From the IMG/VR virus record IMGVR_UViG_3300027969_000088: a stretch of 64,000 bases of DNA. One strand, 5' to 3'. The stretch's first letter is position 1. Each line of letters begins with the position of its first letter. The notes under the pieces are model-generated. The model was not told where the DNA came from. It ran no database searches and was given only the letters and a program-made list of their open reading frames with translations. Source of the DNA: an uncultured virus (IMG/VR IMGVR_UViG_3300027969_000088). Its lineage: Duplodnaviria > Heunggongvirae > Uroviricota > Caudoviricetes. This document shows positions 22,319-54,384 of the stretch, in pieces. Both the position numbers and the translations under genes were made by a program.

Positions 22319-25300
22319 CTAAGGAATCAAACCGTTTTCATCTGCTATACCAACCCTCTTTAATTTCACCATCATATCCGGAGTAATCAAACCTCTTTCC
22401 TTCATAATTATCAAGTATTTCTTTTGTCTTTGGGTATAATACTCTTTCATATAACTATCGTTAGCGGCTTTCTGTGTTTTTTGGAATTGCTCAAATAAAG
22501 TAATAATTTTATTTTTTGCTCCTTCTACATCTCCATCTTCGATATTAGTTTTTATCTTAGCTTTGATGTCTATAATTTCATCACCATAAGACCTAAGAGA
22601 TGTACGCATAAACTCTCCTCTCAATCTCAATTCTTGTCTGTATAAATCGTTAGGTAAACTATATCCAATAAACTTAGGTACATTTTCTGAATCATAACCA
22701 TCGATAGTAGTTTTTTCTAACATCTGAAAATCATTTTTTAAAGGATTAGCAATAATTTGATCTATAGGTCTTGTTTTTTTGTTCCATTGCCATTCATAAT
22801 TTTTACCAGACATTTGTTCGTACATTAGAGCAAAATCTATTAAGCCACTATATAATTTTGAAGACTCAAGATAGATTTGTTTTTCTTTGTTTCTTAATAA
22901 AACTGGTGTAGTATGGTCATGTATCGCAAAAGGATCAAATATTGCTTGTAAATAAGCAACAGCAGAATAATCTCCATCTGGATCGGCAATTGTAACTCTT
23001 GTGCTTAAATCTTCTCCAAATGGTCCTATTGCTTCTTTGAAAAATTCATTTCTTGTGCTTTCATTAAAAGAAATATTTCTATTTAATTTTTGTACTGTTT
23101 TTGTAATTGTTCTTCCAAATACAGCTGGCCAAGTATCGCCTTCTCTTTCCGAGAAAATCTCATTTGAGTTTTGTACCATTTGGGCATTTCCTTTATACAT
23201 GAAAGAATAAAAAGATGGGAAGAAAACAGCCATTGATGTAGACAAGGTTCCTGATGCAAAATTTTCCCATGCTCCTTTACTTGCTTCTGGGTCTTTAAAA
23301 TCAGAAAGTAATTGACCAATACGTGCTAAACCTTGGAACATCGGTAATGTCTCAATACCATTACTAAGTGTATTTTGAAACATAAAACCTATTCCATTTT
23401 TTGCATCATCTACTAATTCAGTCATAGAATCTTGATATGCTTTGCGATTAGCGTTATGAGTACTACCATATAAATTCATAGCATATCCAACAAAACCAGC
23501 ATTATTTGTGTTTAAGATAACATCACCAGGCAATGCAAAACCACCTCTTCTTGCTATAAAATAATCTGTTCCTCTTGTTTTATAGTCACCACCAAAGAAA
23601 TTTAAACCAGTTTTGGCAGCATTTTTTGCTTGTTCTGCTAAATATTCATAGTGCAAAGTAGCGTTATAAATACCTCCACGCAAATTAATATTTTTTAGAT
23701 TTTTTTCTTTTTCTGGTTCTTGACCACTAGCCATAACAGCTCCACATTTAACTGCTGACATAGCAAAACCATAGATTGCAAAACTCGTTGCCATTTGAGC
23801 AGCATCGTGTGTTGTTTGTCTTTTTGCAGCAAACAATTCAATTTTATCTTTTTCGTATTGTAATCTTTTTCTTTCGCTGTTTAATTTTGGAATACCTTTT
23901 CCCCATTTATCACTAGAGTGAAACTGAAAATATTTATACTGATAATACCCTTCAGAAAAAATGTATTTGGCTGAAGCAATATGAGGCACAGTTTTAGCAA
24001 TTGCACTACCTAAAAAGTTCACGGGAACTTTTGTAAATGGCATAAGAGTCCAAAGACCAGCATCTAAGATTTGTAATAAATTTTTACTTATTCCTAAAGC
24101 TGTAAATTGTCTTTTGGCTTCAGAAAAAATACCTGTTCCAGAAGTATTTGCACGATTTGCAATATATGCATTTTTAATTCCTTTTCTAAGAGAACCACGA
24201 ATTGTTGATATACCTCCAGATATTAAATTATCTGCTAATAATGTACGTTTTAATCCTTCTTTTTCAAATGTTTCGTACAATTCTGGCATATTATAAAGAA
24301 TAGTACTTAAAGAACGAATTGCATTTTTATCCAAATTTCCTTTTGCATCTTTAATCATATTATCAAATACACCACCTTGGTAATTTGTACCTTCGATGTT
24401 TTGAAAATAATCAATCATTGCACGTTGAGCTGCCATTTGACCAAATGCTATATCACCTCCGTATGCCATAACACGACCTACAAATTCAGAAGTAGCAGGA
24501 CCAGCAGATGCTAATAACATTGATGCATTTCCACCTACTACAGCAGAAACAGGACCTAATCCAAAACTCCAAGCCAAACTACGAGCTAAAGTATAGTCTT
24601 TACCATCTCTTAATTCAATTGTGCCATCTTTTAATTTGGTGAGTGTTAAGTCTAAAGCATCTGCCTGTTCTTCCATAGTCATTTCAGATAATGATTTACC
24701 AGTAGTTTTTCTTATCATAACATTCATAAAGTTAAATGCCCACGCAGGATCTTTAAAGAAGTTTACTTGAGCAAGATTATCATAATAACGATTTAAACCT
24801 TTTGATGTATTTAAAGCACCATATTTAAAGTTATTCTGTTGAGTATAATGAATTCTATCTGATGTCAATTGTCTAGCCATTTTCCAATTTGAAAAACTTA
24901 AAGTATTACCTTTAATTCCTCTTCCTACTGAATCACGTAATTTTTGTATTCCTCTTGCTGCATAGTTAGTAGTCCAAAGATTGTTTTCTACGTTTGCAAC
25001 TAAACTTAATACAGTAGTTGAAATTCCTAATAATGCTCTACTACCACCAGATGTTATTCTTTCATTCCAGAATATTGGTTTTCTAGCATCTAAGAATTGT
25101 GCTAAACGAATAGTGGCATCTCCTATTGCTTTTTCTGAGGCCCAATAAGTATCAAATGCATTATCACTCCAATCGGTATGTAATTCTTCTAAAGCCTTCT
25201 TATTTCTCTGTTGTGATGTTTTATAATCGTTTGCAAGAGAATTTAAAGTTTCTTTTTGTTTTTCTGTAAGAACTACTCCATTATTTTCTATAGCTCTTTC

Positions 25301-28300
25301 TAAAACGCTTAGAATATTCTTTTCGCTAAATGAACGAGCCATTTGTAAAATTCTACCTGCTTGGCTAAATAATTGAGATGAAACTTGGAATGCATATACT
25401 ATAGATTCCGGATTGTATAAATTATCTCCAACTTTACCGGAACGAACTTGATCCGCCCAATCTAAAGTTTTATCTACTAAATTTCTATCTTGTGAAAACT
25501 TTTTAACAGCGTTGGTTAATTCAATAGCAATTTGGTCAAAGCCATTTGTTGCTAGATAATCAAGGAACAAATCCATAGTGACAGCACTATCAACTAAACC
25601 TATTCCAGTTTGACGTAATACATTAGAAACATCAGCAGCCGTTTGTTCAACTTTTAAATTTTTAACATCTTGTTCCAAATCTTCCATAAAGTCAGTTGGA
25701 AATTCTTTGTTTGCATCTAAAGCATTTTTAACAGTCTCACGATATTCTGCACCGAAGATATCAATTAACTCTGCGTTGCTCATATAATCCATATCCGTAA
25801 CTGCTTTGAAAATTTCCAATGGAGAAAAATTAACCATTACTCCATTGTGTTCCATACCATCTGCAATTAAATCTTCATAAATTAAACCAAGTTGACCTAA
25901 ATTATTGGTGATTTGTTGTTTAATATATTTTTGACGATCAAAGAATACATCGTGAACCTTAGTCATCGTCTCCATAGCAATTTTGGCTTGTGCTTGTTTA
26001 AACGAATTTTCATCAAAATTGGCAAGACCTATTTGTTCTTTGATGTGCTTAGGAGTATAACCTTTATTAATAAGGGCCATATAACTCGAAATCTTATTGT
26101 TATTACTTTGCATCATCGCCCTGTGATATTCAGAACCGATGTTACTATAGTTCAATTGACCTTTATTTTTATAGCCGTCAATAATCGGTTTTAAATGTTT
26201 AGCAAAAAATGAATCAGGATCATTTATATCTTTGATTGTGATATAAGGATCAAATATTTTTGTTTCTCCATCGGCATCTTCGGCAGCATTTTTTTCATGT
26301 ATATCATCTACAATAAGACCTTTTTGAGTAATGGTAACATGATGAGCACCATTTTTACTAAATACTTTTGCTTCAAAACCACTTTGTTTAGTAATTTCTT
26401 TTGCAAGTTCTTGCATATCTGATAAAGAAAAACTACTATATTCTCTAAAAGAAATTGATAAAGCTGGTTGTTTTGTAACAAAAGAAAGTTGATTTTTACC
26501 ATTTAAATCTGACCTTGAAAAACCAACAATTTCATAAGCAGTATTGCTAAACATTAAATTATGCGCTGCAAATCTGTAGAAATCATAGTCAAAACCTCTT
26601 TTATAAAGGTTTGCTATTGTGTTTTTAAATACATATTTACAACCTTCACCTAGCCATACTTTCGATTCCATACCTTGTTTTATTTCATATTCAGGAGCAG
26701 GGAATAGATTTTCTACGTTGTTTATCCATATGCCATTTTTCTTGGCCCAATCTTCTAAGTGGTTTTCTTGTTCTCTGATTGTTTGTTCAGAAGCTCTGGT
26801 GCCCGTGTTAAACTCTTTCGAAAATCTTCCAAGCTCATTAAAGGCCTCTTTTCCCACATTTCCAATGCTGTACTTGTTTGCTTGGGGGCTAAGTTGTTGC
26901 TCTGCGAGAGTTCCGAGTTGTCGTTCGTTTCCGTTTTCATCTATTAATAATGTATTTTTAAGTTGTCCTTTGTTAATTATAGTTGTTGTACTGACAGGTT
27001 TAGTAATAGTAACACCTATCGCACCAAATGTATTGTTTTTTTCTACTACAGCAGATGGTCCTAATCTATCTTGAATGTATTCAAGTAATTCATTACCGTC
27101 AAATCCTTTTTGATATGCTCCAGTACTTTCAATCTTGTAACTTTTGCTTTCTAATCCCGGCTTTCCTCCTTTAGTTGGTTGAATATCTCCAGCCCATTTA
27201 CGAGTACTTATTACTGCTTTACCGCCTTCGTTCAATTTATCGTAAATATCTTGAACGATAGCATCACGTACATCTTTCGGTACGACATTTAATACGTTCA
27301 ATGATACAACAGCATCATATTTTTTATTTATTTGATCTGAGGCCGTAAAAGTAGGTTTTTCTTTACCTTGCCATCTTTCTGTGTTTGGTTCATAAGAATC
27401 TATTGTTCTACCTAATTTACTACCTAACACATCTACTCCAAGACCTAACCCTGCTCCGTAATCTAAAACATCACCTTTTACATCAGCAATTATATTAGCA
27501 ACTTTATTGTAAGATGCTACGGTATTAGCACGTTGAGTTGTACCACTACTTTTTTCAGCTGCTATTTGACCTTTATTAATTGTGTTATCAATCCTAGGTT
27601 TTTTATTCAATAAATCATTTAAAGTAACAGAAGAACCAAAATTATCTCTAAGTTTATTAGTTTTTAATTCTTTAGTTACTTTGTCTTCAGAATCAAATAA
27701 ACTATCTTTATTAAAAATAAGAAAGTTGTCTACTCCTATTTTATTTTCTTGCAAGATATCTTCATCTTTAAAAGCAATACCTGTATATCCTTGAGATTTA
27801 AGTTTTTCTATTAAAGCCTCAACATCTTTTTCATTAATAGAAGTTTCGAATCGTGGGTCTAAAAGTTCATGTATACCTAATTCATCTGTAGTCCAACCTT
27901 CTTCTCTTGGCTTAAGTCCTAAATCGTTAATAGTTTTTCTAACTAAATCTTCAGAAGCCATTTCAATCGGATTTATAAAAAACTTGCTAACTTTTCCATA
28001 ATTCATATTAGCAAATTCTTTCGCTTGTCTTCTATCGCTAGCTACATATAAATTATTTCCTTCGTTATCAAAATTGCCTCCGTGGTATACTGGTATAGTT
28101 TCATTTAGATTAAAATCATTTTGTGCTTTATTAGTAATTTTACCTTTTGCTTTAGTTTCTTTAGAGCCTTTGTTTGTTTTTTCTGTTTGACGATTTGTTT
28201 TCAATTTACCTGTAACTTGTCCACTAGCTAAAGTGTCAGATAAATCATTCATATACTCAATGAAATCCTTACGATTATTTATACTATTGAAAATTTGAAC

Positions 28301-31300
28301 TCTACCTTTAGAAACATACGCCACAAAATCAGAAATGGCTTTAGCAATTTTATCTATGGTAGACAAATCTAATTTCTTTCCGTCTCTAGACATAAGAGCT
28401 GCCAATTCTACTAAAAACTCTTCACCTTTTTGATTATCTCTATATTCCTCAACTAAACTATTTAAGTTTGCTAAATTCTTTTCGCCTACTTGAGATGCAA
28501 GTACATTTTGTAAACTTTCTTTCATTCTATTAAATAATTCTGGATTTTGTCCTAAACTATTTAATAGAAGTACGTGTGAAACTTCGTGACCAATAGTTGT
28601 AGAATTTGCAGTATCCATATTAATTTGAATTTGTGCTTGAAACTTGCCCGTTTTCTCATTAAATGATATAGTTATGTTTCCATTTCTATTTTTCTTTGTA
28701 TCCAAACTAGTCATCGTTTCATTAAAATCATTAGTATTTAATAAAACAATGTTAACACCCGGAGTTGCTTCGTCTAGTACTCCTTGTAATCTTTTAGCAT
28801 CATCTAATATTACATCTGCATTTTGTTGTCCAGCAGCCCTTGCATTATCAGCAATTAAATTTAATTTTTCTTCATCTTTAACTATCGCACCTGTTTTACT
28901 TGCCTTTGTACTTAATCCTGTTACAATCTGAGGCCCAGAAACAACCTTAGTATCGTTCTCTGTCATTTGTTTTTTGAATTCCTCAAGACCTTTAGTTATT
29001 TCTTGGTTTTGAGTTTCAACTTTAATTTTACCATCTAGTAAATCATTTGCAAATTTTTCATCATTCAATGAAGCAATTAAATCAGTATCATCTACAATGA
29101 TGGATTGTTTATTATCAAAAGTAATTTTGGTATAATTTAAATTCTTTCCGTTTGGAATATCTGACATTTTTTTATCCAAACTTTTAATTTGAGAATCGAT
29201 AGCATTTTTTAAATTCTCATCGGTTTGAGCATCAGATGCTTTTTGTAATTTAGCCTTTTTTGAAGCCAATGCCAAGTAATACTTTTGATGATCTGGATTT
29301 TCTATTATTTCTTTAGCAGCAGGAAAAGTTTTAATTACTTCATCAAATGCTTTTCTCATATCCGCTAATTCATTAGCATCAATTTGACCTGTGCGATATA
29401 GCATTTCTGGAATAAAACCAACTCCTTTTTCTCCTATAATTTGCATAGCATCACTAACCATTTGACTTAGTCCGCTATCTTTTAATTTATTAAGTACACG
29501 ATTCTTTGCTATCTCTACTTGCTTTTCTCTATATGTTTCCATCATTGCACTACCACCACCTAAAACCATTACAGTTGGGGTAATGTTAATCATAGTAGAC
29601 ATACCATTTTTACTAGTCCAATCCCAAAAACCATCTGGGTTTTCAGTAGTATATTTATACTCTAAGTAACTTTGTGGTAATTCTTGAGCTCCTTCTGTTA
29701 ATAATTCAAAAGTCGTACCTGCACCAAACTTTTTAGCTATCCCTCCTATTCCTACTCCTTTTCCTAATTTACCAAGGAAACCTTTTGTAAAAGGTAACAT
29801 TTCTGCTACATATGTAGGAGCAAGTAATAATTGAACTCTTAAGCTTTCAGCAGCAGCGTTTTCAGCATCTGCAACAGATCCTGTTCTTTTAAAAGCATTT
29901 TTATAATTCTGACCAGTTTGATCCCAAGTATCTTGAGCAAAACCTATTGAACCACCTACATATGCACTACCACCTAAAAGTGTTGCAGCCATTGCTGGTG
30001 CATAATTAACAGTTTGCATAGCAAGATTTTGTACAACATTTTTTAACGCTGCTGTACTTAATAATCCTTCTACTTCTAAAACTTTATCAAATGGTGAAAT
30101 ATGAACTTCGCTCTTTTTTTGTACTAATTGTAAATGTTTTAATAAACCAGTTAGTGGATTATTTTCATATCCTACAGCAGCACTAATAGATTGTATTGCA
30201 TTTTCAAAATTATCAGCAGCTCTTCCTTGAATAATATCTACTATTCTCCACCCTAGGTTTGAACTATTGCGTTCTTCATCTATTGCAAAGTCATCGTATG
30301 CATCACGATAAGCATCTCTATATTTACGATACGCTGCTGTTGTTACTCTTGCTCCTTCTTCGTTTGCGTCATGAGCAACACCATATTTTTTTTGTAGTTT
30401 TTCAAAGTCTTTTTCAGATTGACCATCAAGTTGAATTTGATATTGAGTATATTTTTCTTCTGCTGCCTTTTTTAAATCGTTTTTAAGTTTTTCGTTTTTG
30501 TCGTTTTCTTCTTTTACAAAATTTACATACTTTGCATATTCAGCTGCATTTTGTTCTGGCGTTATATTAGGAGTTTGAGAAAATGACAAATATGTTTGAT
30601 AAGAAAGATTAACACTTTGTTTAGATGCCTCAGCAGCTTTTTTCATTGTTTGTTCAAAGTCATTTGCTAAACTTAAACTATATGAATTTAAAACTTTATT
30701 TTTATCAAACACTAATTGCTTTATGTCTTTTTCAAAATCTAAATTTGCCCTTGATATATCTTCAGCAAAAATATTTTTATCATTTACTTTTTTCTCAACT
30801 ATATTTTCAATTAAATTTTCTTCTGCTCTTTGTGACAATAAACGAATCATACGAGGTTTAATAATAGCTATAACATCTTCTTTGCTCATATCTAAGCGTT
30901 TCAATGTTTCATCTTTAATAAAGCCCATAGGAGCATTTAAATATTTATCTACTTGGTCTTCTATATAAATAGGATTGATTTTTGGATTGTTAGCATCATC
31001 TAGCATTACTAATCCATAATCTCCAGCTAATTGTCTGTTTGGATTTAATCCTTTAGAACTTGTTTTAGTTATTTTTCCAACATTATTAATACTTTCTGTT
31101 GTAATTGTTGTAAGTGCTGGATTATCATAGAAATTAACTGGCAAATTAAAATTAGAACTTTTTAAAATTTTATTAATCTCTGGAGTGATTATTTGGTCAA
31201 ATTGATTTCCTGCAATATTTAAATCTCCTTCGACATCAAATCTTCTATCAGAAGAAGTAGCAATACTTAAATCTTGGTACGCTGAATAATTTCTTACGTA

Positions 31301-32083
31301 ACTTTCTAATAAATTTTGACTTTGTTCAACTGGCTTAGGTTTGTTTAACTCGGTTAAACTTTCAGTTAATGTAAACTCTTTAAAAGGTGCTCCTTTTTGA
31401 ATTGGGGCAAAATTAATTGCTTGAGTACCTTCGCCTTTTGGTTTTATCTCAATGTTGTTATTGTTAATATTAACATTGAATTTTTTATTTGCTGTTTTTA
31501 CTATGGCATCTAAATCTTCTTGAGCATTAGGGTCAGATTTAAATTGTTTATATAATTGTACAAAATTATCTGTTTTATCCTTTAGTAAATTTAAATTTAC
31601 ATTAGGCTGAGCTAATAAATTTTGTATCTCTCCATATAAGGTTTGATACTGATTCTTCATAGAACCAGTATATGGCATTTGTCCTACAGACTTTATAATA
31701 CCATTTGTCGGGGTAGGTTTTGGTATTGATGGACCAGTAGAATTTTCAAATCCTACACTCATCAAATTATTGTTTTCTTGTTGACTTACATTTCCAGCGT
31801 TTTCTGGTAAATTCGCTTGGGTTTGGTCCACCACATTTTCAGTCTGTCCACCCGAAAGAGATTGAAAAGAAGAACTTTCTTCTGCGAGGTTTTGAATAAT
31901 CGGTTGGTCTTTTTTTTTTAAATATTCTGAGGCCGATTTCACTCCGAATAAATCTTCAAGTTGTTTATCTGCCTCTGGGGCACTAGTAATAAACTCTTGA
32001 AAATCTTCTTTGTTGTTAAAGTACTGACCGAAATCAGGTTTTTGGCTTAACTCGCCATACAGTTCTTCAAAATTTTCTGCCAT
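22319..32083 (-). CDS. giant virion cargo / polyvalent protein (zincin protease, ART-like, SAM-methyltransferase, kinase-like domains)
   Basis: HEVSH at aa ~1166 with downstream EEF; VYHGG...LYVASD...A..FA (ART-like); VLDYGAGLG...YDAVVSLNVLNV (MTase); GMESKV...DDIHEKN...IFDP (kinase-like). Confidence 0.85.
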   Translation of the reverse strand: MAENFEELYGELSQKPDFGQYFNNKEDFQEFITSAPEADKQLEDLFGVKSASEYLKKKDQPIIQNLAEESSSFQSLSGGQTENVVDQTQANLPENAGNVSQQENNNLMSVGFENSTGPSIPKPTPTNGIIKSVGQMPYTGSMKNQYQTLYGEIQNLLAQPNVNLNLLKDKTDNFVQLYKQFKSDPNAQEDLDAIVKTANKKFNVNINNNNIEIKPKGEGTQAINFAPIQKGAPFKEFTLTESLTELNKPKPVEQSQNLLESYVRNYSAYQDLSIATSSDRRFDVEGDLNIAGNQFDQIITPEINKILKSSNFNLPVNFYDNPALTTITTESINNVGKITKTSSKGLNPNRQLAGDYGLVMLDDANNPKINPIYIEDQVDKYLNAPMGFIKDETLKRLDMSKEDVIAIIKPRMIRLLSQRAEENLIENIVEKKVNDKNIFAEDISRANLDFEKDIKQLVFDKNKVLNSYSLSLANDFEQTMKKAAEASKQSVNLSYQTYLSFSQTPNITPEQNAAEYAKYVNFVKEENDKNEKLKNDLKKAAEEKYTQYQIQLDGQSEKDFEKLQKKYGVAHDANEEGARVTTAAYRKYRDAYRDAYDDFAIDEERNSSNLGWRIVDIIQGRAADNFENAIQSISAAVGYENNPLTGLLKHLQLVQKKSEVHISPFDKVLEVEGLLSTAALKNVVQNLAMQTVNYAPAMAATLLGGSAYVGGSIGFAQDTWDQTGQNYKNAFKRTGSVADAENAAAESLRVQLLLAPTYVAEMLPFTKGFLGKLGKGVGIGGIAKKFGAGTTFELLTEGAQELPQSYLEYKYTTENPDGFWDWTSKNGMSTMINITPTVMVLGGGSAMMETYREKQVEIAKNRVLNKLKDSGLSQMVSDAMQIIGEKGVGFIPEMLYRTGQIDANELADMRKAFDEVIKTFPAAKEIIENPDHQKYYLALASKKAKLQKASDAQTDENLKNAIDSQIKSLDKKMSDIPNGKNLNYTKITFDNKQSIIVDDTDLIASLNDEKFANDLLDGKIKVETQNQEITKGLEEFKKQMTENDTKVVSGPQIVTGLSTKASKTGAIVKDEEKLNLIADNARAAGQQNADVILDDAKRLQGVLDEATPGVNIVLLNTNDFNETMTSLDTKKNRNGNITISFNEKTGKFQAQIQINMDTANSTTIGHEVSHVLLLNSLGQNPELFNRMKESLQNVLASQVGEKNLANLNSLVEEYRDNQKGEEFLVELAALMSRDGKKLDLSTIDKIAKAISDFVAYVSKGRVQIFNSINNRKDFIEYMNDLSDTLASGQVTGKLKTNRQTEKTNKGSKETKAKGKITNKAQNDFNLNETIPVYHGGNFDNEGNNLYVASDRRQAKEFANMNYGKVSKFFINPIEMASEDLVRKTINDLGLKPREEGWTTDELGIHELLDPRFETSINEKDVEALIEKLKSQGYTGIAFKDEDILQENKIGVDNFLIFNKDSLFDSEDKVTKELKTNKLRDNFGSSVTLNDLLNKKPRIDNTINKGQIAAEKSSGTTQRANTVASYNKVANIIADVKGDVLDYGAGLGLGVDVLGSKLGRTIDSYEPNTERWQGKEKPTFTASDQINKKYDAVVSLNVLNVVPKDVRDAIVQDIYDKLNEGGKAVISTRKWAGDIQPTKGGKPGLESKSYKIESTGAYQKGFDGNELLEYIQDRLGPSAVVEKNNTFGAIGVTITKPVSTTTIINKGQLKNTLLIDENGNERQLGTLAEQQLSPQANKYSIGNVGKEAFNELGRFSKEFNTGTRASEQTIREQENHLEDWAKKNGIWINNVENLFPAPEYEIKQGMESKVWLGEGCKYVFKNTIANLYKRGFDYDFYRFAAHNLMFSNTAYEIVGFSRSDLNGKNQLSFVTKQPALSISFREYSSFSLSDMQELAKEITKQSGFEAKVFSKNGAHHVTITQKGLIVDDIHEKNAAEDADGETKIFDPYITIKDINDPDSFFAKHLKPIIDGYKNKGQLNYSNIGSEYHRAMMQSNNNKISSYMALINKGYTPKHIKEQIGLANFDENSFKQAQAKIAMETMTKVHDVFFDRQKYIKQQITNNLGQLGLIYEDLIADGMEHNGVMVNFSPLEIFKAVTDMDYMSNAELIDIFGAEYRETVKNALDANKEFPTDFMEDLEQDVKNLKVEQTAADVSNVLRQTGIGLVDSAVTMDLFLDYLATNGFDQIAIELTNAVKKFSQDRNLVDKTLDWADQVRSGKVGDNLYNPESIVYAFQVSSQLFSQAGRILQMARSFSEKNILSVLERAIENNGVVLTEKQKETLNSLANDYKTSQQRNKKALEELHTDWSDNAFDTYWASEKAIGDATIRLAQFLDARKPIFWNERITSGGSRALLGISTTVLSLVANVENNLWTTNYAARGIQKLRDSVGRGIKGNTLSFSNWKMARQLTSDRIHYTQQNNFKYGALNTSKGLNRYYDNLAQVNFFKDPAWAFNFMNVMIRKTTGKSLSEMTMEEQADALDLTLTKLKDGTIELRDGKDYTLARSLAWSFGLGPVSAVVGGNASMLLASAGPATSEFVGRVMAYGGDIAFGQMAAQRAMIDYFQNIEGTNYQGGVFDNMIKDAKGNLDKNAIRSLSTILYNMPELYETFEKEGLKRTLLADNLISGGISTIRGSLRKGIKNAYIANRANTSGTGIFSEAKRQFTALGISKNLLQILDAGLWTLMPFTKVPVNFLGSAIAKTVPHIASAKYIFSEGYYQYKYFQFHSSDKWGKGIPKLNSERKRLQYEKDKIELFAAKRQTTHDAAQMATSFAIYGFAMSAVKCGAVMASGQEPEKEKNLKNINLRGGIYNATLHYEYLAEQAKNAAKTGLNFFGGDYKTRGTDYFIARRGGFALPGDVILNTNNAGFVGYAMNLYGSTHNANRKAYQDSMTELVDDAKNGIGFMFQNTLSNGIETLPMFQGLARIGQLLSDFKDPEASKGAWENFASGTLSTSMAVFFPSFYSFMYKGNAQMVQNSNEIFSEREGDTWPAVFGRTITKTVQKLNRNISFNESTRNEFFKEAIGPFGEDLSTRVTIADPDGDYSAVAYLQAIFDPFAIHDHTTPVLLRNKEKQIYLESSKLYSGLIDFALMYEQMSGKNYEWQWNKKTRPIDQIIANPLKNDFQMLEKTTIDGYDSENVPKFIGYSLPNDLYRQELRLRGEFMRTSLRSYGDEIIDIKAKIKTNIEDGDVEGAKNKIITLFEQFQKTQKAANDSYMKEYYTQRQKKYLIIMKERGLITPDMMVKLKRVGIADENGLIP

Positions 32084-49452: not shown

Positions 49453-50410
49453 CAAAGACGAGCAATACCAGGAATGGTTAGACTTTCGTGAAAGAGGCTT
49501 AGGTGCTTCTGAGATTGGCACTCTTATGGGTGTCAATTCTTGGAAGTCCCCAGCCGAATTGTATTATCAAAAGATAGGATTGATTCCTCAGAAGCAAGTG
49601 CAGAATATGCCTATGTTTATGGGAACTATTCTTGAGCAAACTGTTGCAGATATTTTTGAACATTGGGAGAACGATGAGGCTACAATGATTAAGAACTTTG
49701 GTGAAGGTAAGAAGGTTAGACAATTGTATGAACCAGTAGGTTACATTATCAATCCTTTGTACCCACATCTATTCTTTTCTCCGGATAGACTAATTACAAC
49801 AAAAGAAATCAGAGTCCGAAACTCAGCGATTAACCTTGAGAATGTTGAGGCTATTGCTGAAATCAAAACCATTAATGGTTGGTCTGCTAAGCAATGGGAA
49901 GGTGGAATACCTCCATCCTACTATTTACAATTGCAAACCTACTTAATGGGTCTCGGAGTTCAAAAAGGTTACCTTGTTGTCCTAAAAGACGGAAGAGACT
50001 TTACTGTACATGAGTATGAGGCCGATGAAGATATCATCAGTTCTATTATAAACATTACTACAGACTTTTGGGAAAGAGTTCAACTAGGTAGAGAAGCACT
50101 TAAGAACGGAGGAGACTATGATCAGTATGCTCCACCACCAGATGGTACAGAAGCATTTGCTGAATATCTTACTGAAAGGTATGCTAATCCAGAGGATAAG
50201 AGTATAGCTTCGAATGTAGAGATTGATGAGTACATAACTCATTACTTAAAACTTGGTGGAAAAATTGCTGAAATGGAAGATGAGAAAAGAGAAGCTTCGA
50301 ATATGATTAAGAACCATATGGGTAACTATGCTTTGTTAAACTCTGATATAGCAAAGGTTACGTGGAGACCTAACAAAAATGGTTCACGTGTATTTAGGGT
50401 AAATGGCTAA
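49427..50410 (+). CDS. YqaJ/lambda-exonuclease family recombination nuclease
   Basis: WLDFRERGLGASEI, GTILE, SPDRL, EIKT, YYLQLQTY. Confidence 0.92.
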   Translation: MKLELVRINKDEQYQEWLDFRERGLGASEIGTLMGVNSWKSPAELYYQKIGLIPQKQVQNMPMFMGTILEQTVADIFEHWENDEATMIKNFGEGKKVRQLYEPVGYIINPLYPHLFFSPDRLITTKEIRVRNSAINLENVEAIAEIKTINGWSAKQWEGGIPPSYYLQLQTYLMGLGVQKGYLVVLKDGRDFTVHEYEADEDIISSIINITTDFWERVQLGREALKNGGDYDQYAPPPDGTEAFAEYLTERYANPEDKSIASNVEIDEYITHYLKLGGKIAEMEDEKREASNMIKNHMGNYALLNSDIAKVTWRPNKNGSRVFRVNG

Positions 50411-50687
50411 GGGGGATAAGGAATGGTATTTAAATATGTGGCAAACGAGACAGACGCACCAGTGCGAGGAATGTGGTTTACATCTTCCACACTTCTCTCC
50501 GATGTTCATATCGCATATCATAACAAAAGGAAGTTATCCGAGTCTGAGGCAACATCCCGAAAACTGGATGCTATATTGTATGCATTGTCATCAGACATGG
50601 GAGTTTGGCAAGAGGAAGGAGATGAAGACTTACCAGAGAGCCATGGAGATTGCTGAAAAATTAAAAAGGGAGTATCATTCAAAATAA
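50403..50687 (+). CDS. small HNH/Zn-finger nuclease (NinG/Ref-like)
   Basis: CEECG...SHIITKG...NWMLYCMHCH. Confidence 0.75.
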   Translation: MAKGDKEWYLNMWQTRQTHQCEECGLHLPHFSPMFISHIITKGSYPSLRQHPENWMLYCMHCHQTWEFGKRKEMKTYQRAMEIAEKLKREYHSK

Positions 50688-50725
50688 AGTTTGCATATGT
50701 AAACCTTTTATTTTATCTTTGTAAT

Positions 50726-51148
50726 ATGTCTAGGAAAAGAGATAGTAAATATGACGATGCCTACCAACTTTATTTAGATGGTATGTCATTACAGCAAGTT
50801 GCTAGTTCTATTAGTGTTACGAGACAATGTGTTTTCAAAGCATTTAAAAAAAGAAATTTTATTCTGAGAACTCCTAATTTTCAACCTCATCAGTATTTTG
50901 ATGGTCATAAATTTTCTCTTAGAAATCATGGTTATTACGAAAAAACTACCGGTAATAGAGAATTGATGCATCGTTATGTTTGGGAAAAACACAATGGTCC
51001 AATTCTTGAAAAACATGACATACATCACAAGAATCATGATAGAAGTGATAATAGAATTGAAAATTTAGAAATGCTTGGCCATAAAGAACACGCTAAAAAA
51101 TACGCAACAGGAAATAACCAATATACAAAGAAAAATGATTCACTTTAG
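50726..51148 (+). CDS. HNH homing endonuclease with N-terminal HTH
   Basis: MHRYVWEKHNG...IHHKNHDRSDNRIENLEML; TATCTTTG 4 nt upstream. Confidence 0.88.
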   Translation: MSRKRDSKYDDAYQLYLDGMSLQQVASSISVTRQCVFKAFKKRNFILRTPNFQPHQYFDGHKFSLRNHGYYEKTTGNRELMHRYVWEKHNGPILEKHDIHHKNHDRSDNRIENLEMLGHKEHAKKYATGNNQYTKKNDSL

Positions 51149-52202
51149 TTTATTTTCTGGCATAGGAGGATTTGATCTTGCTTCTGAGTGGATGGGATGG
51201 AAAAACTATTTAAGTTGTGACATCAATCCATTTAGTAAAAAAATCTGTGAATTCTATTGGCCAGAGGCTTATCATCATGATAATATTAAAACATTAAATT
51301 ATGAAACAATTAACATTGAACTTTCAAGGAGATTCGGAAGCCACTGGAGAAATGAGGACATTATCCTCACCGGTGGCTTCCCGTGACCATGTCAACCCTT
51401 CAGTACCGCTGGAAAAAGGATGGGAAAAGAAGATGATCGCCATCTTTGGCCCTATATGCTCCAAGCAATCAAAGACATTAGACCAAGATATGTCGTGGGG
51501 GAAAATGTTCGTGGACTCCTTAGTTGGTCGGACGGATTGGTTCTCGAAGAGGTCTACGCTGATTTGGAAGGTGAGGGATACGAAATCCAAACGTTTGTAC
51601 TTCCAGCTGTCGGCATCAATGCACCACACAAACGGGACAGGGTCTGGATTATTGCTAAAAACACCAGCAGCGATGGACGGGTACAGCGAGAACTTAACGA
51701 AGAAGGAACAAGTATTCGGAAATTCGGGGACACTGGCTCAAGAAGTAGCAACGGGGTTCATATACAAGAGGGGGATGATACCAACACCAATAGCCGGGGA
51801 TTGGAAGGGTCAATTGAGATCGGACGGAACAGCGAATATGTTGAGCGGAAAAGCGACATTGGGATTACTGCCGACACCGAACAGTTACGATTGGAACACA
51901 GCAGCGAAGCCTGGGACGTATTTGGCTCGATCACAGAGGCACAAGGACAAGAACGTAAATCTCCAAATGAGTCTAAGACAGATGACAATGTTTATACCGA
52001 ACAAGGTGGACCATCCGAAGCTTGGGACTGCTTCCCAATTAAATCCCCACTTTGTAGCGGAGATGATGGGCTTCCCAACGAATTGGACGGACTTACCTTT
52101 CCTAAGTGGAGAAAAGAAAGTATAATGGGATATGGCAACGCCATTGTTCCTCAGATTGCTTACCGTATATTTGCAACCATAAATGAACTCGAAAATAGAT
52201 AA
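51135..52202 (+). CDS. C5-cytosine DNA methyltransferase, alpha chain, with in-frame TGA at 51384-51386
   Basis: Motif I FSGIGG; GGFP*PCQPFS; ENV; HKRDRVW; motif X GYGNAIVPQ; all in one frame. Confidence 0.85.
51301..52125 (+). CDS. overlapping alternate-frame beta chain of the C5 methyltransferase (TRD + motif IX)
   Basis: 274-aa nested ORF with PTP..DW repeats and LNPHFVAEMMGFPTNWT (motif IX), which the alpha frame lacks. Confidence 0.75.
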   Translation: MKQLTLNFQGDSEATGEMRTLSSPVASRDHVNPSVPLEKGWEKKMIAIFGPICSKQSKTLDQDMSWGKMFVDSLVGRTDWFSKRSTLIWKVRDTKSKRLYFQLSASMHHTNGTGSGLLLKTPAAMDGYSENLTKKEQVFGNSGTLAQEVATGFIYKRGMIPTPIAGDWKGQLRSDGTANMLSGKATLGLLPTPNSYDWNTAAKPGTYLARSQRHKDKNVNLQMSLRQMTMFIPNKVDHPKLGTASQLNPHFVAEMMGFPTNWTDLPFLSGEKKV

Positions 52203-53117: not shown

Positions 53118-53249
53118 TTAAAAGAAATTAGCCCCGTTGGCCAGGGGATCGTAAAATACAGATCGGCATTTTAACAATGCCCAAGACATCTGTTCTCATC
53201 GTATAGGAGATAGGGTTAGCCTTCCCGACATCGTCTAAAAAGGCAAACA

Positions 53250-53326
53250 TAGTCAGGTGGATTAATATGGTAAATCATTCAATGGGAAACTGTTGAAAGA
53301 TACAGGTTCGAATCCTGTCCGACTAC
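53250..53326 (+). ncRNA. tRNA-like RNA 1, anticodon arm replaced by a GAAA-tetraloop hairpin
   Basis: Acceptor TAGTC../..GACTA; D arm GATT-AATATGGTA-AATC; TTCAATGG-GAAA-CTGTTGAA; T arm ACAGG-TTCGAAT-CCTGT. Confidence 0.75.
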
Positions 53327-53394
53327 ACCGGTAATGGGAAGGAAGCCCACGTTAAACTAAACCGTTGGAGGCTGTCGAGCCTTATGGATCGGTG
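53326..53394 (+). ncRNA. structured RNA unit between tRNA-like elements
   Basis: Closing stem CACCGGT/ATCGGTG with inner hairpins TGGG..CCCA and GAGGCT-GTCG-AGCCTT. Confidence 0.45.
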
Positions 53395-53470
53395 TACCTA
53401 GATGTAAAATTGGTGCTATTGGTCTCTGAAGAATAGGGAACACGGGTAACTGCAAGATAAGTTACAAAAT

Positions 53471-53545
53471 AGGTGCATTGATCGTTTAGCGGTTAAGACA
53501 TATCGTAAGATAAGACGCAGGTTCGAATCCTGGGTAGGTGCACCT
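53471..53545 (+). ncRNA. tRNA-like RNA 2, anticodon arm replaced by a GTAA-tetraloop hairpin
   Basis: AGGTGCATT/GGTGCACCT; D arm GTTT-AGCGGTTA-AGAC; TATC-GTAA-GATA; CAGG-TTCGAAT-CCTG. Confidence 0.75.
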
Positions 53546-53549
53546 TAAA

Positions 53550-53677
53550 TCGGAGAGTGGCGGAAGGTTAGGGGTAACCCTGACGTGTTAGACGCTGCTA
53601 GCTAAATATAGCAATTTGGGATTAGCCCTCTAACCATAGAGTGCCCAAAATACAGGTTAGAGTCCTGTCTCTCTGAC
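53550..53677 (+). ncRNA. expanded tRNA-like RNA 3 (Leu-type scaffold with insertions)
   Basis: TCGGAGAG/CTCTCTGA; TGGCGGAA...AGACGC D arm holding a GTTAGGG-GTAA-CCCTGAC insert; TGCTA-(8 nt)-TAGCA; long variable arm; ACAGG-TTAGAGT-CCTGT. Confidence 0.7.
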
Positions 53678-53760
53678 AAACAACAAAGGGGCATCAATGT
53701 CCCTCTGTATACATAATATCAGTTCAAACCTGACAAATAAACTATGAAAGCAATATTAGA

Positions 53761-54384
53761 ATGATTGGAATTTATAAAATAGTATCTCCAATAGGTAGAG
53801 TATATGTAGGACAATCTACAAATATAGAAAAAAGATGGAATCACTATAGATCACTAGACTGTAAGGACCAACAAAAAATATATAATTCTTTTGTTAAGTA
53901 CGGGGTTTGTAGTCATATTTTTTTAATAATTGAAGAGTGTGATGTTAGCGATTTGAACGAAAGAGAAAGATATTGGCAAGAATATTACGATGTTGTAAAA
54001 AAAGGATTAAATTGCAAAATGGTTTTTACAAATGAAAAATCTGGTTTTTTATGCGAAGAAACAAAGAAAAAAATAAGCAAAGCAAATAAAGGAAGATCTA
54101 ATAGAAAGAATTATAACCATTCAGAAGAAACAAAGAGAAAAATAAGTGAAGCCAATAAAGGAAAAAAAGCAACTGGTTTTTTAGGAAATCACTCAGAAGA
54201 AACAAAAAGAAAAATAAGTGAAGCCAATAAAGGAAGAATTGTTTCTGACGAACACAAATTAAAATTATCATTAGCAGCTATTGGAAGGCCAAGCAAGTTA
54301 AAAGGTAGAATTTTTACAGAAGAAGAAAGAAAAACAATGTATTCAACAAGGAAAAAAATAAAAAATATATGCAAGCTCAATTAA
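53761..54384 (+). CDS. GIY-YIG homing endonuclease with NUMOD3 repeats
   Basis: MIGIYKI...VYVGQS...R...ERE; repeated HSEETKRKISEANKG. Confidence 0.92.
   Translation: MIGIYKIVSPIGRVYVGQSTNIEKRWNHYRSLDCKDQQKIYNSFVKYGVCSHIFLIIEECDVSDLNERERYWQEYYDVVKKGLNCKMVFTNEKSGFLCEETKKKISKANKGRSNRKNYNHSEETKRKISEANKGKKATGFLGNHSEETKRKISEANKGRIVSDEHKLKLSLAAIGRPSKLKGRIFTEEERKTMYSTRKKIKNICKLN

Follow-up and report, generated by a model that had tools for sequence, protein, structure and literature searches.

To our knowledge, programmed translational bypassing is represented by essentially one well-studied natural bacterial example, gene 60 of phage T4, and shorter counterparts have long been expected by those studying it. 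Synthetic stop-hops in Escherichia coli were reportedly obtained by Weiss et al. in 1987 and O'Connor et al. in 1989. Here, a putative natural counterpart is described from an uncultured virus of the Caudoviricetes (IMG/VR record IMGVR_UViG_3300027969_000088), of which a stretch of 64,000 nucleotides (nt), hereafter the window, was analysed. The element in question is an in-frame insert of a proline codon and a stop codon in motif IV, the catalytic motif, of a C5 cytosine methyltransferase gene. Comparison with its relatives indicates that this stop, a TGA, is probably the skipped codon of a programmed +6 translational hop, carried within a mobile cassette analogous to T4 mobA/gene 60.

In T4 gene 60, as described, the take-off codon is followed by a stop, the mRNA folds into a 5' stem-loop on leaving the ribosome, and an HNH endonuclease, MobA, is linked to the gene (10.1101/2022.08.31.505936, 10.1101/2024.12.09.627546). 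MobA and the 50-nt bypass insert are presented as one mobile element whose insert protects against MobA (10.1101/2022.08.31.505936, citing Bonocora et al. 2011), and some phages that have no MobA nuclease are said there to keep the insert (10.1101/2022.08.31.505936). For gene 60, pairing of the exiting mRNA has been argued to be the driver of forward bypassing (10.1101/2024.12.09.627546), and the cassette was called 'unique' in a 2022 preprint (10.1101/2022.08.31.505936). In the synthetic stop-hops of E. coli, matched codons flank a stop (PMC5009743, 10.1101/2024.12.09.627546), whereas for hopping over an in-frame stop in nature a 2016 review states that 'no occurences are known' (PMC5009743).

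The window locus resembles gene 60 in having a stop in the A site at take-off, with landing here proposed on a matching codon (10.1101/2022.08.31.505936; PMC5009743), and a 5' stem-loop, which here shows covariation and would by analogy be stimulatory. In both cases the insert lies within a conserved phage enzyme gene, an HNH-family gene stands directly upstream, and some carriers without the endonuclease retain the insert. The gap here is 6 or 9 nt in place of 50 nt, the take-off codon is a Pro codon (CCN) in place of Gly GGA, landing tolerates C-to-U changes, and the host gene encodes a C5 methyltransferase, interrupted at motif IV, rather than a topoisomerase. Unlike gene 60, the locus has no take-off stem-loop inside the gap. 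It is an analogue only and not a member of the gene 60 cassette family (50-nt gap, in-gap take-off stem-loop, KKYK nascent peptide), given its gap of 6 or 9 nt and its different gene; no sequence relation to that cassette was noticed, although no sequence comparison aimed at it was made. The arrangement described for the synthetic stop-hops is exactly that of CCG TGA CCA in the window; unlike those artificial, low-level constructs, which have no stimulators, the site is conserved, lies in a catalytic motif and is preceded by a co-varying, stimulatory-looking stem-loop.

Two further systems bear comparison. M.EcoHK31I is likewise described as an alpha/beta C5 methyltransferase with the beta chain nested in another frame (PMC2836561). 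At the window locus, by contrast, the beta chain has 274 amino acids (aa) and appears to include a variable, target-recognition-like region, the beta frame is the selected frame in the central 120 codons, and the alpha chain is interrupted, whereas no in-frame stop is reported for M.EcoHK31I. In the candidate bypassing of a Streptomyces phage terminase gene, a hop over a short coding gap in a phage gene has also been proposed (PMC5009743, PMC10732093). That case differs in gene and in its dependence on a rare UUA codon, and the passages of those sources that deal with it mention no endonuclease link.

The interrupted methyltransferase gene

The gene extends on the plus strand from an ATG at 51135 to a TAA at 52200-02 and contains a single in-frame stop, the TGA within motif IV (Table 1). 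An initial annotation, made from the sequence alone, had read the site as G-F-P-stop-P-C-Q-P-F, with both halves in one frame, intact motifs on either side and exactly six extra nucleotides relative to the canonical motif. All of this holds. Between 51375 and 51395 the codons are GGC (51375-77), TTC (51378-80), CCG, TGA, CCA, TGT (51390-92) and CAA (51393-95), followed by CCC and TTC, and the frame-0 translation from the ATG, ...ILTGGFP*PCQPFSTAGKRMGKEDD..., continues to the terminal TAA. Aligned with eight full-length relatives, which read GGF--PCQPFS, the window has exactly two extra codons, Pro and stop, and thus GGFP-stop-PCQ in place of the GGFPCQ of uninterrupted relatives. The full-length relatives (311-385 aa) span 100% of the read-through translation. 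Pfam PF00145 matches the N-terminal part with 21.6 bits (cut-off 22) and the C-terminal part with 86.1 bits (profile positions 70-319 of 324), and motifs I, IV (PCQ), VI (ENV), VIII and X share one frame, the interrupting stop aside. The GC content of the gene is mosaic, being 29-32% in the N-terminal part and 45-50% in the C-terminal part, with the switch near motif IV.

Recurrence of the insert

Sequence comparison shows the insert to be neither an assembly error nor a private mutation, both of which are ruled out by its recurrence and by contigs of other studies. Contigs from two such studies span the site and list no indel (X2 record 9, 50700-51710; X3 record 21, 51135-51776), a comparison in which 27 substitution rows are not displayed and letter-by-letter identity is therefore unproven. 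The CCN-stop-CCN pattern, which the initial annotation had proposed to look for in homologues, does recur, and the same Pro-stop insert at motif IV is present in more than 100 distinct phage and metagenome sequences. The recent private inactivating insertion that had been offered as the alternative is refuted by this recurrence.

The syntenic relative L001 carries CCT TGA CCA at the same position, and a distant relative (L039/L041, 42% identity) carries CCG TAA TGA CCT. The strict Pro-stop-Pro pattern at motif IV was found in 39 viral-contig stretches; across all loci collected it gave 42 matches in 34 distinct versions, 33 of them real and one a chance match. Metagenomes contributed at least 80 in-context matches among the 118 stretches listed, and 5 of 56 genome stretches were in methyltransferase context. 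The five bacterial-genome carriers are metagenome-assembled genomes labelled Ideonella, Paceibacterota and Oscillospiraceae (two), and the isolate Muriventricola aceti H5_61. The copy in this cultured isolate (L243, contig NZ_JAOQKF010000002.1) is of the embedded-HNH type and reads CCT TGA CCC. Carrier contigs were assigned to Bacteroidota-type, Firmicutes, Proteobacteria and candidate phyla radiation (CPR) lineages. The N-terminal sequence type of the window occurs at 26 loci, 14 interrupted and 12 uninterrupted.

When the middle codon between the two Pro codons was left free (NNN), 84 stretches were obtained. In the 80 that were listed, this position held a stop 36 times and a sense codon 44 times, and translated flanks placed 35 of the 36 stop cases and none of the 44 sense cases in methyltransferase context. 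Likewise, TGG, which the TRR pattern permits, never occurred in this context among the matches listed (0/16 in metagenomes, 0/14 in genomes), and a pattern scan for a stop inserted without the extra 5' Pro codon returned 0 stretches. All three stops are used in the 63 distinct interrupted versions (TAA 31, TAG 16, TGA 16), and the stop directly follows the take-off codon in 63/63, a count that holds by construction of the search pattern. Eight genuine 9-nt gaps were found, six of which contain two stops in tandem. In the cultured-phage collection, no interrupted example was found with the window site DNA (which had no match there), the Firmicutes-type site, the protein encoded after the stop (alpha-C) or the HNH_3 protein of the upstream gene. 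The matches in Paenibacillus phages begin exactly at the landing codon and belong to uninterrupted nested alpha/beta genes annotated as two coding sequences.

Take-off and landing codons

With the landing codon left free in the pattern, 79 of 80 matches were methyltransferase sites, giving the 63 distinct versions. The take-off codon is always CCN (CCG 31, CCT 19, CCA 11, CCC 2). The landing codon is always Y-Y-N (63/63), with a purine as third base in 55 of the 63 (CTA 16, CCA 13, CCG 9, CTG 8, TCA 6, CCC 4, CCT 3, TCG 2, CTT 1, TTA 1), and in sense it is Pro in 29, Leu in 26 and Ser in 8. Since the residue before the catalytic Cys is Pro in 115/115 uninterrupted relatives, the Leu and Ser codons indicate that the landing codon is not translated as that residue. 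Codons of this form appear to be those that could pair, by G:C or G.U, with a UGG Pro anticodon (two G's and a U). The matched landing codon emphasized by the initial annotation stands for the window, where CCG and CCA are both Pro codons readable by one peptidyl-tRNA; the family as a whole is not strictly Pro and follows Y-Y-N instead. The preference for CCG and CCT at take-off, together with landing codons ending in A, would favour the forward direction.

A conserved stem-loop upstream of the stop

A stem-loop ends at the take-off codon, the first C of which forms its last pair (Table 1). The fold of 51325-51400 has an energy of -32.4 kcal/mol (z = -4.64), with 0/200 shuffles as good. Its 3' arm consists of the Gly-Gly-Phe codons, and its 5' arm, some 35 nt further upstream, falls within a 12-residue segment missing from type-A relatives. 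Over 116 distinct interrupted sites, the mean duplex energy of the 3' arm with the upstream sequence is -19.1 kcal/mol, compared with -6.4 kcal/mol in 37 uninterrupted relatives (p = 3e-19), -6.8 kcal/mol in 78 uninterrupted sites drawn by pattern alone (p = 5e-30) and -9.05 kcal/mol with shuffled upstream sequence, the GC content being alike in interrupted and uninterrupted sites (0.47 vs 0.44). Anchored stems of 8 bp or longer are found at 83/116 interrupted sites vs 0/37 and 0/78 uninterrupted ones.

The two Gly wobble positions covary with the 5' arm (CG 38, GC 29, UA 4 at one; AU 32, UA 21, GC 18 at the other). In a plain MAFFT alignment of 97 sequences, the covariation score is 0.264 against 0.181 for shuffled alignments, 0/500 of which reach the observed value, and slid controls score 0.07-0.17. 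N-terminal types of differing amino acids (G-S-H-W, W-N-P and others) all provide a complementary 5' arm, indicating that RNA pairing overrides protein sequence there. The Phe codon is TTC in 112/116 interrupted sites vs 19/37 and 56/78 of the uninterrupted controls, and the rare TTT codons pair opposite A's. A role of TTC as a slippery site was rejected, because stem pairing explains TTC better and the TTT versions have A in the 5' arm. The hairpin that had been suggested 3' of the stop is at chance level: 51384-51430 folds at -7.7 kcal/mol (z = +0.31), 119/200 shuffles doing as well, and the downstream z-scores of interrupted sites (mean -0.55) are not lower than those of uninterrupted sites (mean -0.92).

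Selection on both sides of the stop and the nested beta chain

Among three interrupted relatives (the window, L001 and L051), the ratio of nonsynonymous to synonymous change (dN/dS) in the part of the alpha chain before the stop (alpha-N) is 0.03-0.06, and the raw proportion of synonymous differences (pS) is 0.57-0.63 in codons 1-55, the part that beta does not overlap. Between the window and L001, differences at the three frame-0 codon positions number 4/2/15 over motifs IV-VIII; for codons 240-270, within which the motif X tail lies, they number 2/1/7. In the central 120 codons the counts are 40/6/6, and the +1 frame is the one selected there. In the non-overlapped tail, pS is 0.566 (0.571 in alpha-N) and dN/dS is 0.125, with a range of 0.04-0.27. 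The equal pS implies that the two sides of the stop diverged together, with the far side under frame-0 constraint.

In a crude simulation with 92 random substitutions that left beta open, frame 0 also remained open in 8/580 replicates, and with 141 substitutions in 0/113. In the 63 distinct versions, which have 40-80% mutual identity, frame 0 is long and open wherever the contig allows. Judged by these substitution patterns, purifying selection acts in frame on each half of the gene. The relaxed selection downstream that the initial annotation had named as telling against its proposal is not seen, the downstream half having frame-0 third-position bias and the low tail dN/dS given above. A pseudogene was rejected on the dN/dS of 0.03-0.27 in the non-overlapped parts of both sides and on finding no other stop or frameshift.

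The nested beta ORF (open reading frame) is open across the stop site, bearing out the earlier remark that a 6-nt insert preserves the overlapping frame. It has 2841 library matches at E<=1e-3, and the alpha and beta frames are both open in 43 of 44 relatives, whereas the third frame contains 12-24 stops; alpha thus contains a second chain in another frame, conserved at the protein level. Over the central 120 codons, substitutions fall at beta-frame third positions, and this beta-frame selection makes alpha a passenger linker there, which must stay open to reach motif X. Within the region, only the 52023-52172 segment, which coincides with a stretch conserved in both frames (DDGLP..LDG in alpha, EMMGFP..W in beta), is similar at the DNA level to phages that have been cultured or deposited, namely those of Bacteroides and Porphyromonas (72-77% over about 130 nt). 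Some related proteins have the chains in one frame without overlap, namely P0218 (482 aa; alpha then beta) and P0257 (660 aa; beta then the motif X end), and P0193 (342 aa) is a beta chain with an inserted HNH_3 domain.

Linkage to an HNH_3 gene

The gene directly upstream encodes an HNH_3 protein (Table 1). Of 64 distinct interrupted loci, 47 have an HNH_3 homologue no more than 1.4 kb upstream, as against 0 of 39 uninterrupted controls, most of which are relatives of the window (Fisher p = 3e-15). Thirty-six of the 47 share the strand of the methyltransferase gene but use another frame, 10 are embedded in its frame and one lies on the opposite strand. Among the 36, 35 end 229-260 nt before motif IV and the remaining one (L402) ends 44 nt before it; the 10 embedded copies stand in frame 57-144 nt before the motif. 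The HNH_3 gene is absent from L001 and from the X3 variant, both of which keep the insert. N-terminal types are found recombined with differing C-terminal types.

The initial annotation had put forward a conjectural role of the site in limiting or regulating methyltransferase output. The tight linkage suggests that the insert mainly exists as part of a mobile cassette. We propose a single cassette, made up of the insert, the N-terminal segment with its hairpin and the neighbouring HNH_3 gene, which enters methyltransferase genes by recombination at motif IV, with the HNH_3 protein as its candidate homing endonuclease. The insert would plausibly protect its carrier from the cassette's own endonuclease, as in T4 mobA/gene 60. 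The uninterrupted loci L055-L061 and L064, of the same N-terminal type as the window (type B), have neither the insert nor the HNH_3 gene and keep the 12-residue segment with a decayed hairpin (-13 to -15 kcal/mol). They may represent 'hit and run' loss of the cassette or a precursor of it.

Proposed mechanism and alternative explanations

In the proposed mechanism, ribosomes would translate alpha to ...Gly-Gly-Phe-Pro, with the peptidyl-tRNA-Pro on CCG in the P site and TGA in the A site. C-terminal proline slows termination, and the ribosome would thus pause at CCG-TGA. At this point the 5' arm of the stem would already have emerged, while the ribosome would still cover the partner arm, made of the Gly-Gly-Phe codons and the first C of the Pro codon. 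Zipping of the stem behind the ribosome would pull the mRNA forward, the tRNA would release CCG, and it would re-pair six bases further on at CCA (9 nt on in some relatives, at any Y-Y-N codon). CCA would be re-paired by the peptidyl-tRNA-Pro and not decoded again, decoding would resume at the Cys codon, and the product would be a full-length alpha chain with the canonical GGFPCQPFS, working together with the nested beta chain. It would hold the tryptic peptide ...ILTGGFPCQPFSTAGK, with nothing encoded by TGA or CCA. This reading is drawn from the recurrence, the stop-only inserts, the tandem stops, the co-varying stem-loop and the purifying selection on both halves.

Several points weigh against the hop. 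Fewer than 8 contiguous anchored pairs are found at 33/116 sites, the stem being weak or irregular in a minority, and in the embedded-HNH type it is weaker and interrupted (z = -0.78 in L243). The landing codon is not Pro in 34/63 versions, where re-pairing would need G.U at codon position 1 or 2, and a CCG take-off codon could be read by tRNA-Pro(CGG), a poor fit to CCA or CUA. The argument from selection presupposes a stop older than the divergence of the window, L001 and L051, and later cassette swaps by homing would make part of the downstream frame-0 signal a relic. The sequences share phylogeny, by which counts and p-values overstate independence, and the controls of the HNH_3 linkage are subject to the reservation given above. 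Synthetic stop-hops are described as low-level (10.1101/2024.12.09.627546). The case for an efficient 6-nt hop is comparative for every member, and the coverage of RNA run X21 (51782-52091) lies outside the stop site.

The tight HNH_3 linkage, the GC mosaic with its switch near motif IV, the recombination of N-terminal types with different C-terminal types and the uninterrupted type-B relatives with a decayed hairpin would also fit the scar of a selfish cassette, in which the HNH_3 cassette invades motif IV and the stop kills alpha, the invasions being recent and the hairpin serving the endonuclease gene, for example in mRNA stability or regulation. We consider this unlikely, because a dead gene would not need the selection seen in alpha-N (dN/dS 0.03-0.06 at pS of about 0.6). 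Moreover, synonymous divergence is alike across the stop, the tail is constrained and frame 0 is long and open in all 63 distinct versions wherever the contig allows; such a scar would also leave unexplained why the insert is stop-only, with CCN before it, Y-Y-N after it and stops in tandem. It is improbable that the enzyme is truly split, with the 83-aa N fragment released, the remainder made separately and the pieces assembling. Artificial fragments of C5 methyltransferases are reported to complement each other (PMC3404938, PMC3439449), M.EcoHK31I is described as naturally heterodimeric (PMC2836561), and gene callers start the C-terminal protein at the first ATG (5 among the 120 homologues listed). 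However, no start codon in frame separates the stop from the catalytic Cys, which is the second codon after the stop, and starting at the first in-frame ATG (51420) would remove PCQPFSTAGKR, which is conserved in 79/80 pattern matches. The ATG or GTG formed by the last base of the landing codon and TG lies in the -1 frame, which is open for a median of 17 codons. A restart at this codon overlapping the Cys codon was accordingly rejected as being in the wrong frame, and a -1 slip on C-CCN was rejected as well, the -1 frame closing after the same median distance.

A +1 frameshift at Pro-stop into the beta frame would yield an alpha-N::beta fusion, instead of or besides the hop. The +1 frame is indeed open for at least 150 codons from take-off in 62/65 interrupted loci, and a purine-rich GGNGG 4 nt 5' of the take-off codon resembles the layout of the prfB frameshift site. 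Yet +1 re-pairing of tRNA-Pro is possible only at CCT or CCC (21/63) and not at CCG or CCA (42/63), the fusion would be devoid of the catalytic Cys and motifs VI and VIII, and neither the downstream frame-0 selection nor the Y-Y-N landing codon would be explained, which makes this reading highly doubtful. A changed code or readthrough, in which suppression or reassignment of the stop would insert an amino acid to give GGFP-X-PCQ, is very unlikely, even though a stop in a well-conserved gene is its classic signature and an unusual tRNA-like gene is located 1.9 kb downstream. Each of the three stops is used at the site, tandem stops fill 6/8 of the nine-nt gaps, and no sense codon takes the stop position in methyltransferase context among the matches listed. 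TAA, TAG and TGA end 28, 4 and 5 of 37 ordinary long ORFs in the window, and a decoded landing codon would place Leu or Ser ahead of Cys in 34/63 versions, against the invariant Pro of normal relatives. Hence, of the two options in the initial annotation, programmed bypass or readthrough, the Pro-to-Pro stop-hop regenerating GGFPCQ is strongly supported by comparison, and readthrough is contradicted by the tandem stops and the non-Pro codons before Cys. Removal of the six bases from the mRNA by hairpin-guided cleavage and ligation, or their absence from part of the DNA population, has nothing in its support beyond the conserved hairpin that abuts the insert; three studies have DNA contigs that keep the insert, and none lists a deletion variant, we know of no bacterial mechanism of this kind, and the probability of such removal is minimal.

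Features of the locus and its surroundings

The window has phage-like content, including a YqaJ recombinase, two HNH genes, a GIY-YIG gene and large structural ORFs. In the nearest virus record (G001), the methyltransferase region has no match.

Table 1 Coordinates of the interrupted methyltransferase locus and other features of the window.
Feature	Position	Strand	Remarks
Large ORF	22319-32083	-	single ORF, 3254 aa
Further HNH gene	50403-50687
HNH_3 gene (weak HTH_7)	50726..51148	+	140 aa; Pfam PF13392, 57.5 bits; overlaps methyltransferase start by 14 nt; candidate homing endonuclease
C5 cytosine methyltransferase gene	51135..52202	+	ATG to TAA
Alpha chain before stop	51135..51383	+	83 codons, motif I FSGIGG to GGFP of motif IV
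Nested beta gene	51301..52125	+ (+1 frame)	274 aa; LLPTP-type repeats, motif-IX-like end
5' stem-loop	51336..51381	+	outer 12-bp stem 51336-51347/51370-51381; inner 6-bp hairpin 51353-58/51364-69
Take-off codon CCG (Pro)	51381..51383	+	CCN in all 63 distinct interrupted versions
In-frame stop TGA	51384..51386	+	proposed skipped codon, from sequence; relatives with TGA, TAA, TAG or two stops
Proposed landing codon CCA	51387..51389	+	Y-Y-N in all 63 distinct interrupted versions
Alpha chain after stop	51390..52202	+	catalytic Cys codon, motifs IV-VIII, unstructured-looking linker, motif X (GNAIVPQ)
tRNA-like gene	53250-53326		Rfam tRNA, 41.1 bits
Second tRNA-like match	53475-53542		weak; 23.3 bits, under gathering score
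GIY-YIG + NUMOD3 gene	53761-54384		homing-endonuclease-like

The tRNA-like gene lies in a GC-richer island (about 53200-53700). ARAGORN assigned no amino acid to it and gave a four-base anticodon, 'gaaa', and its Rfam match has 9 instead of 6 unshown positions in the anticodon-loop part. Expanded anticodon loops recall frameshift- and hop-promoting tRNAs; no link was found between this gene and the Pro-stop site. The GIY-YIG + NUMOD3 gene directly follows the island and is a second free-standing nuclease gene near the locus.

Significance of the putative stop-hop cassette

A literature search yielded no report of a stop or of hopping within a methyltransferase gene, subscription journals being mostly outside its reach. 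Stop-hop-type programmed bypassing in a gene unrelated to gene 60, with its own stimulator and its own endonuclease, is likely to be novel. We lean, with some reserve, towards regarding it as the first natural stop-hop and as a second, evolutionarily independent family of endonuclease-linked bypass cassettes, in which a stem-driven slide of 6 or 9 nt would pass over one or two stops and a module of HNH_3 gene, methyltransferase 5' segment and insert would home to motif IV, the insert conferring immunity. The spread of carriers over contigs assigned to Bacteroidota-type, Firmicutes, Proteobacteria and CPR lineages implies that such a signal would function on widely differing ribosomes. With its more than 100 natural variants, a minimal cassette of about 55 nt would make it possible to test directly how mRNA structure forming at the ribosome exit drives forward sliding, how closely codon and anticodon must match at a landing site, and whether a stop after a C-terminal proline serves as a take-off context in general.

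Interrupted genes are annotated as fragments or pseudogenes, C-terminal stubs being 5 among the 120 homologues listed, and as a result the anti-restriction methyltransferases of many phages would be under-counted. Moreover, the HNH link repeats the logic of mobA/gene 60 in an unrelated gene, which suggests that homing elements repeatedly use 'insert plus bypass' to mark a conserved gene and yet not inactivate it.

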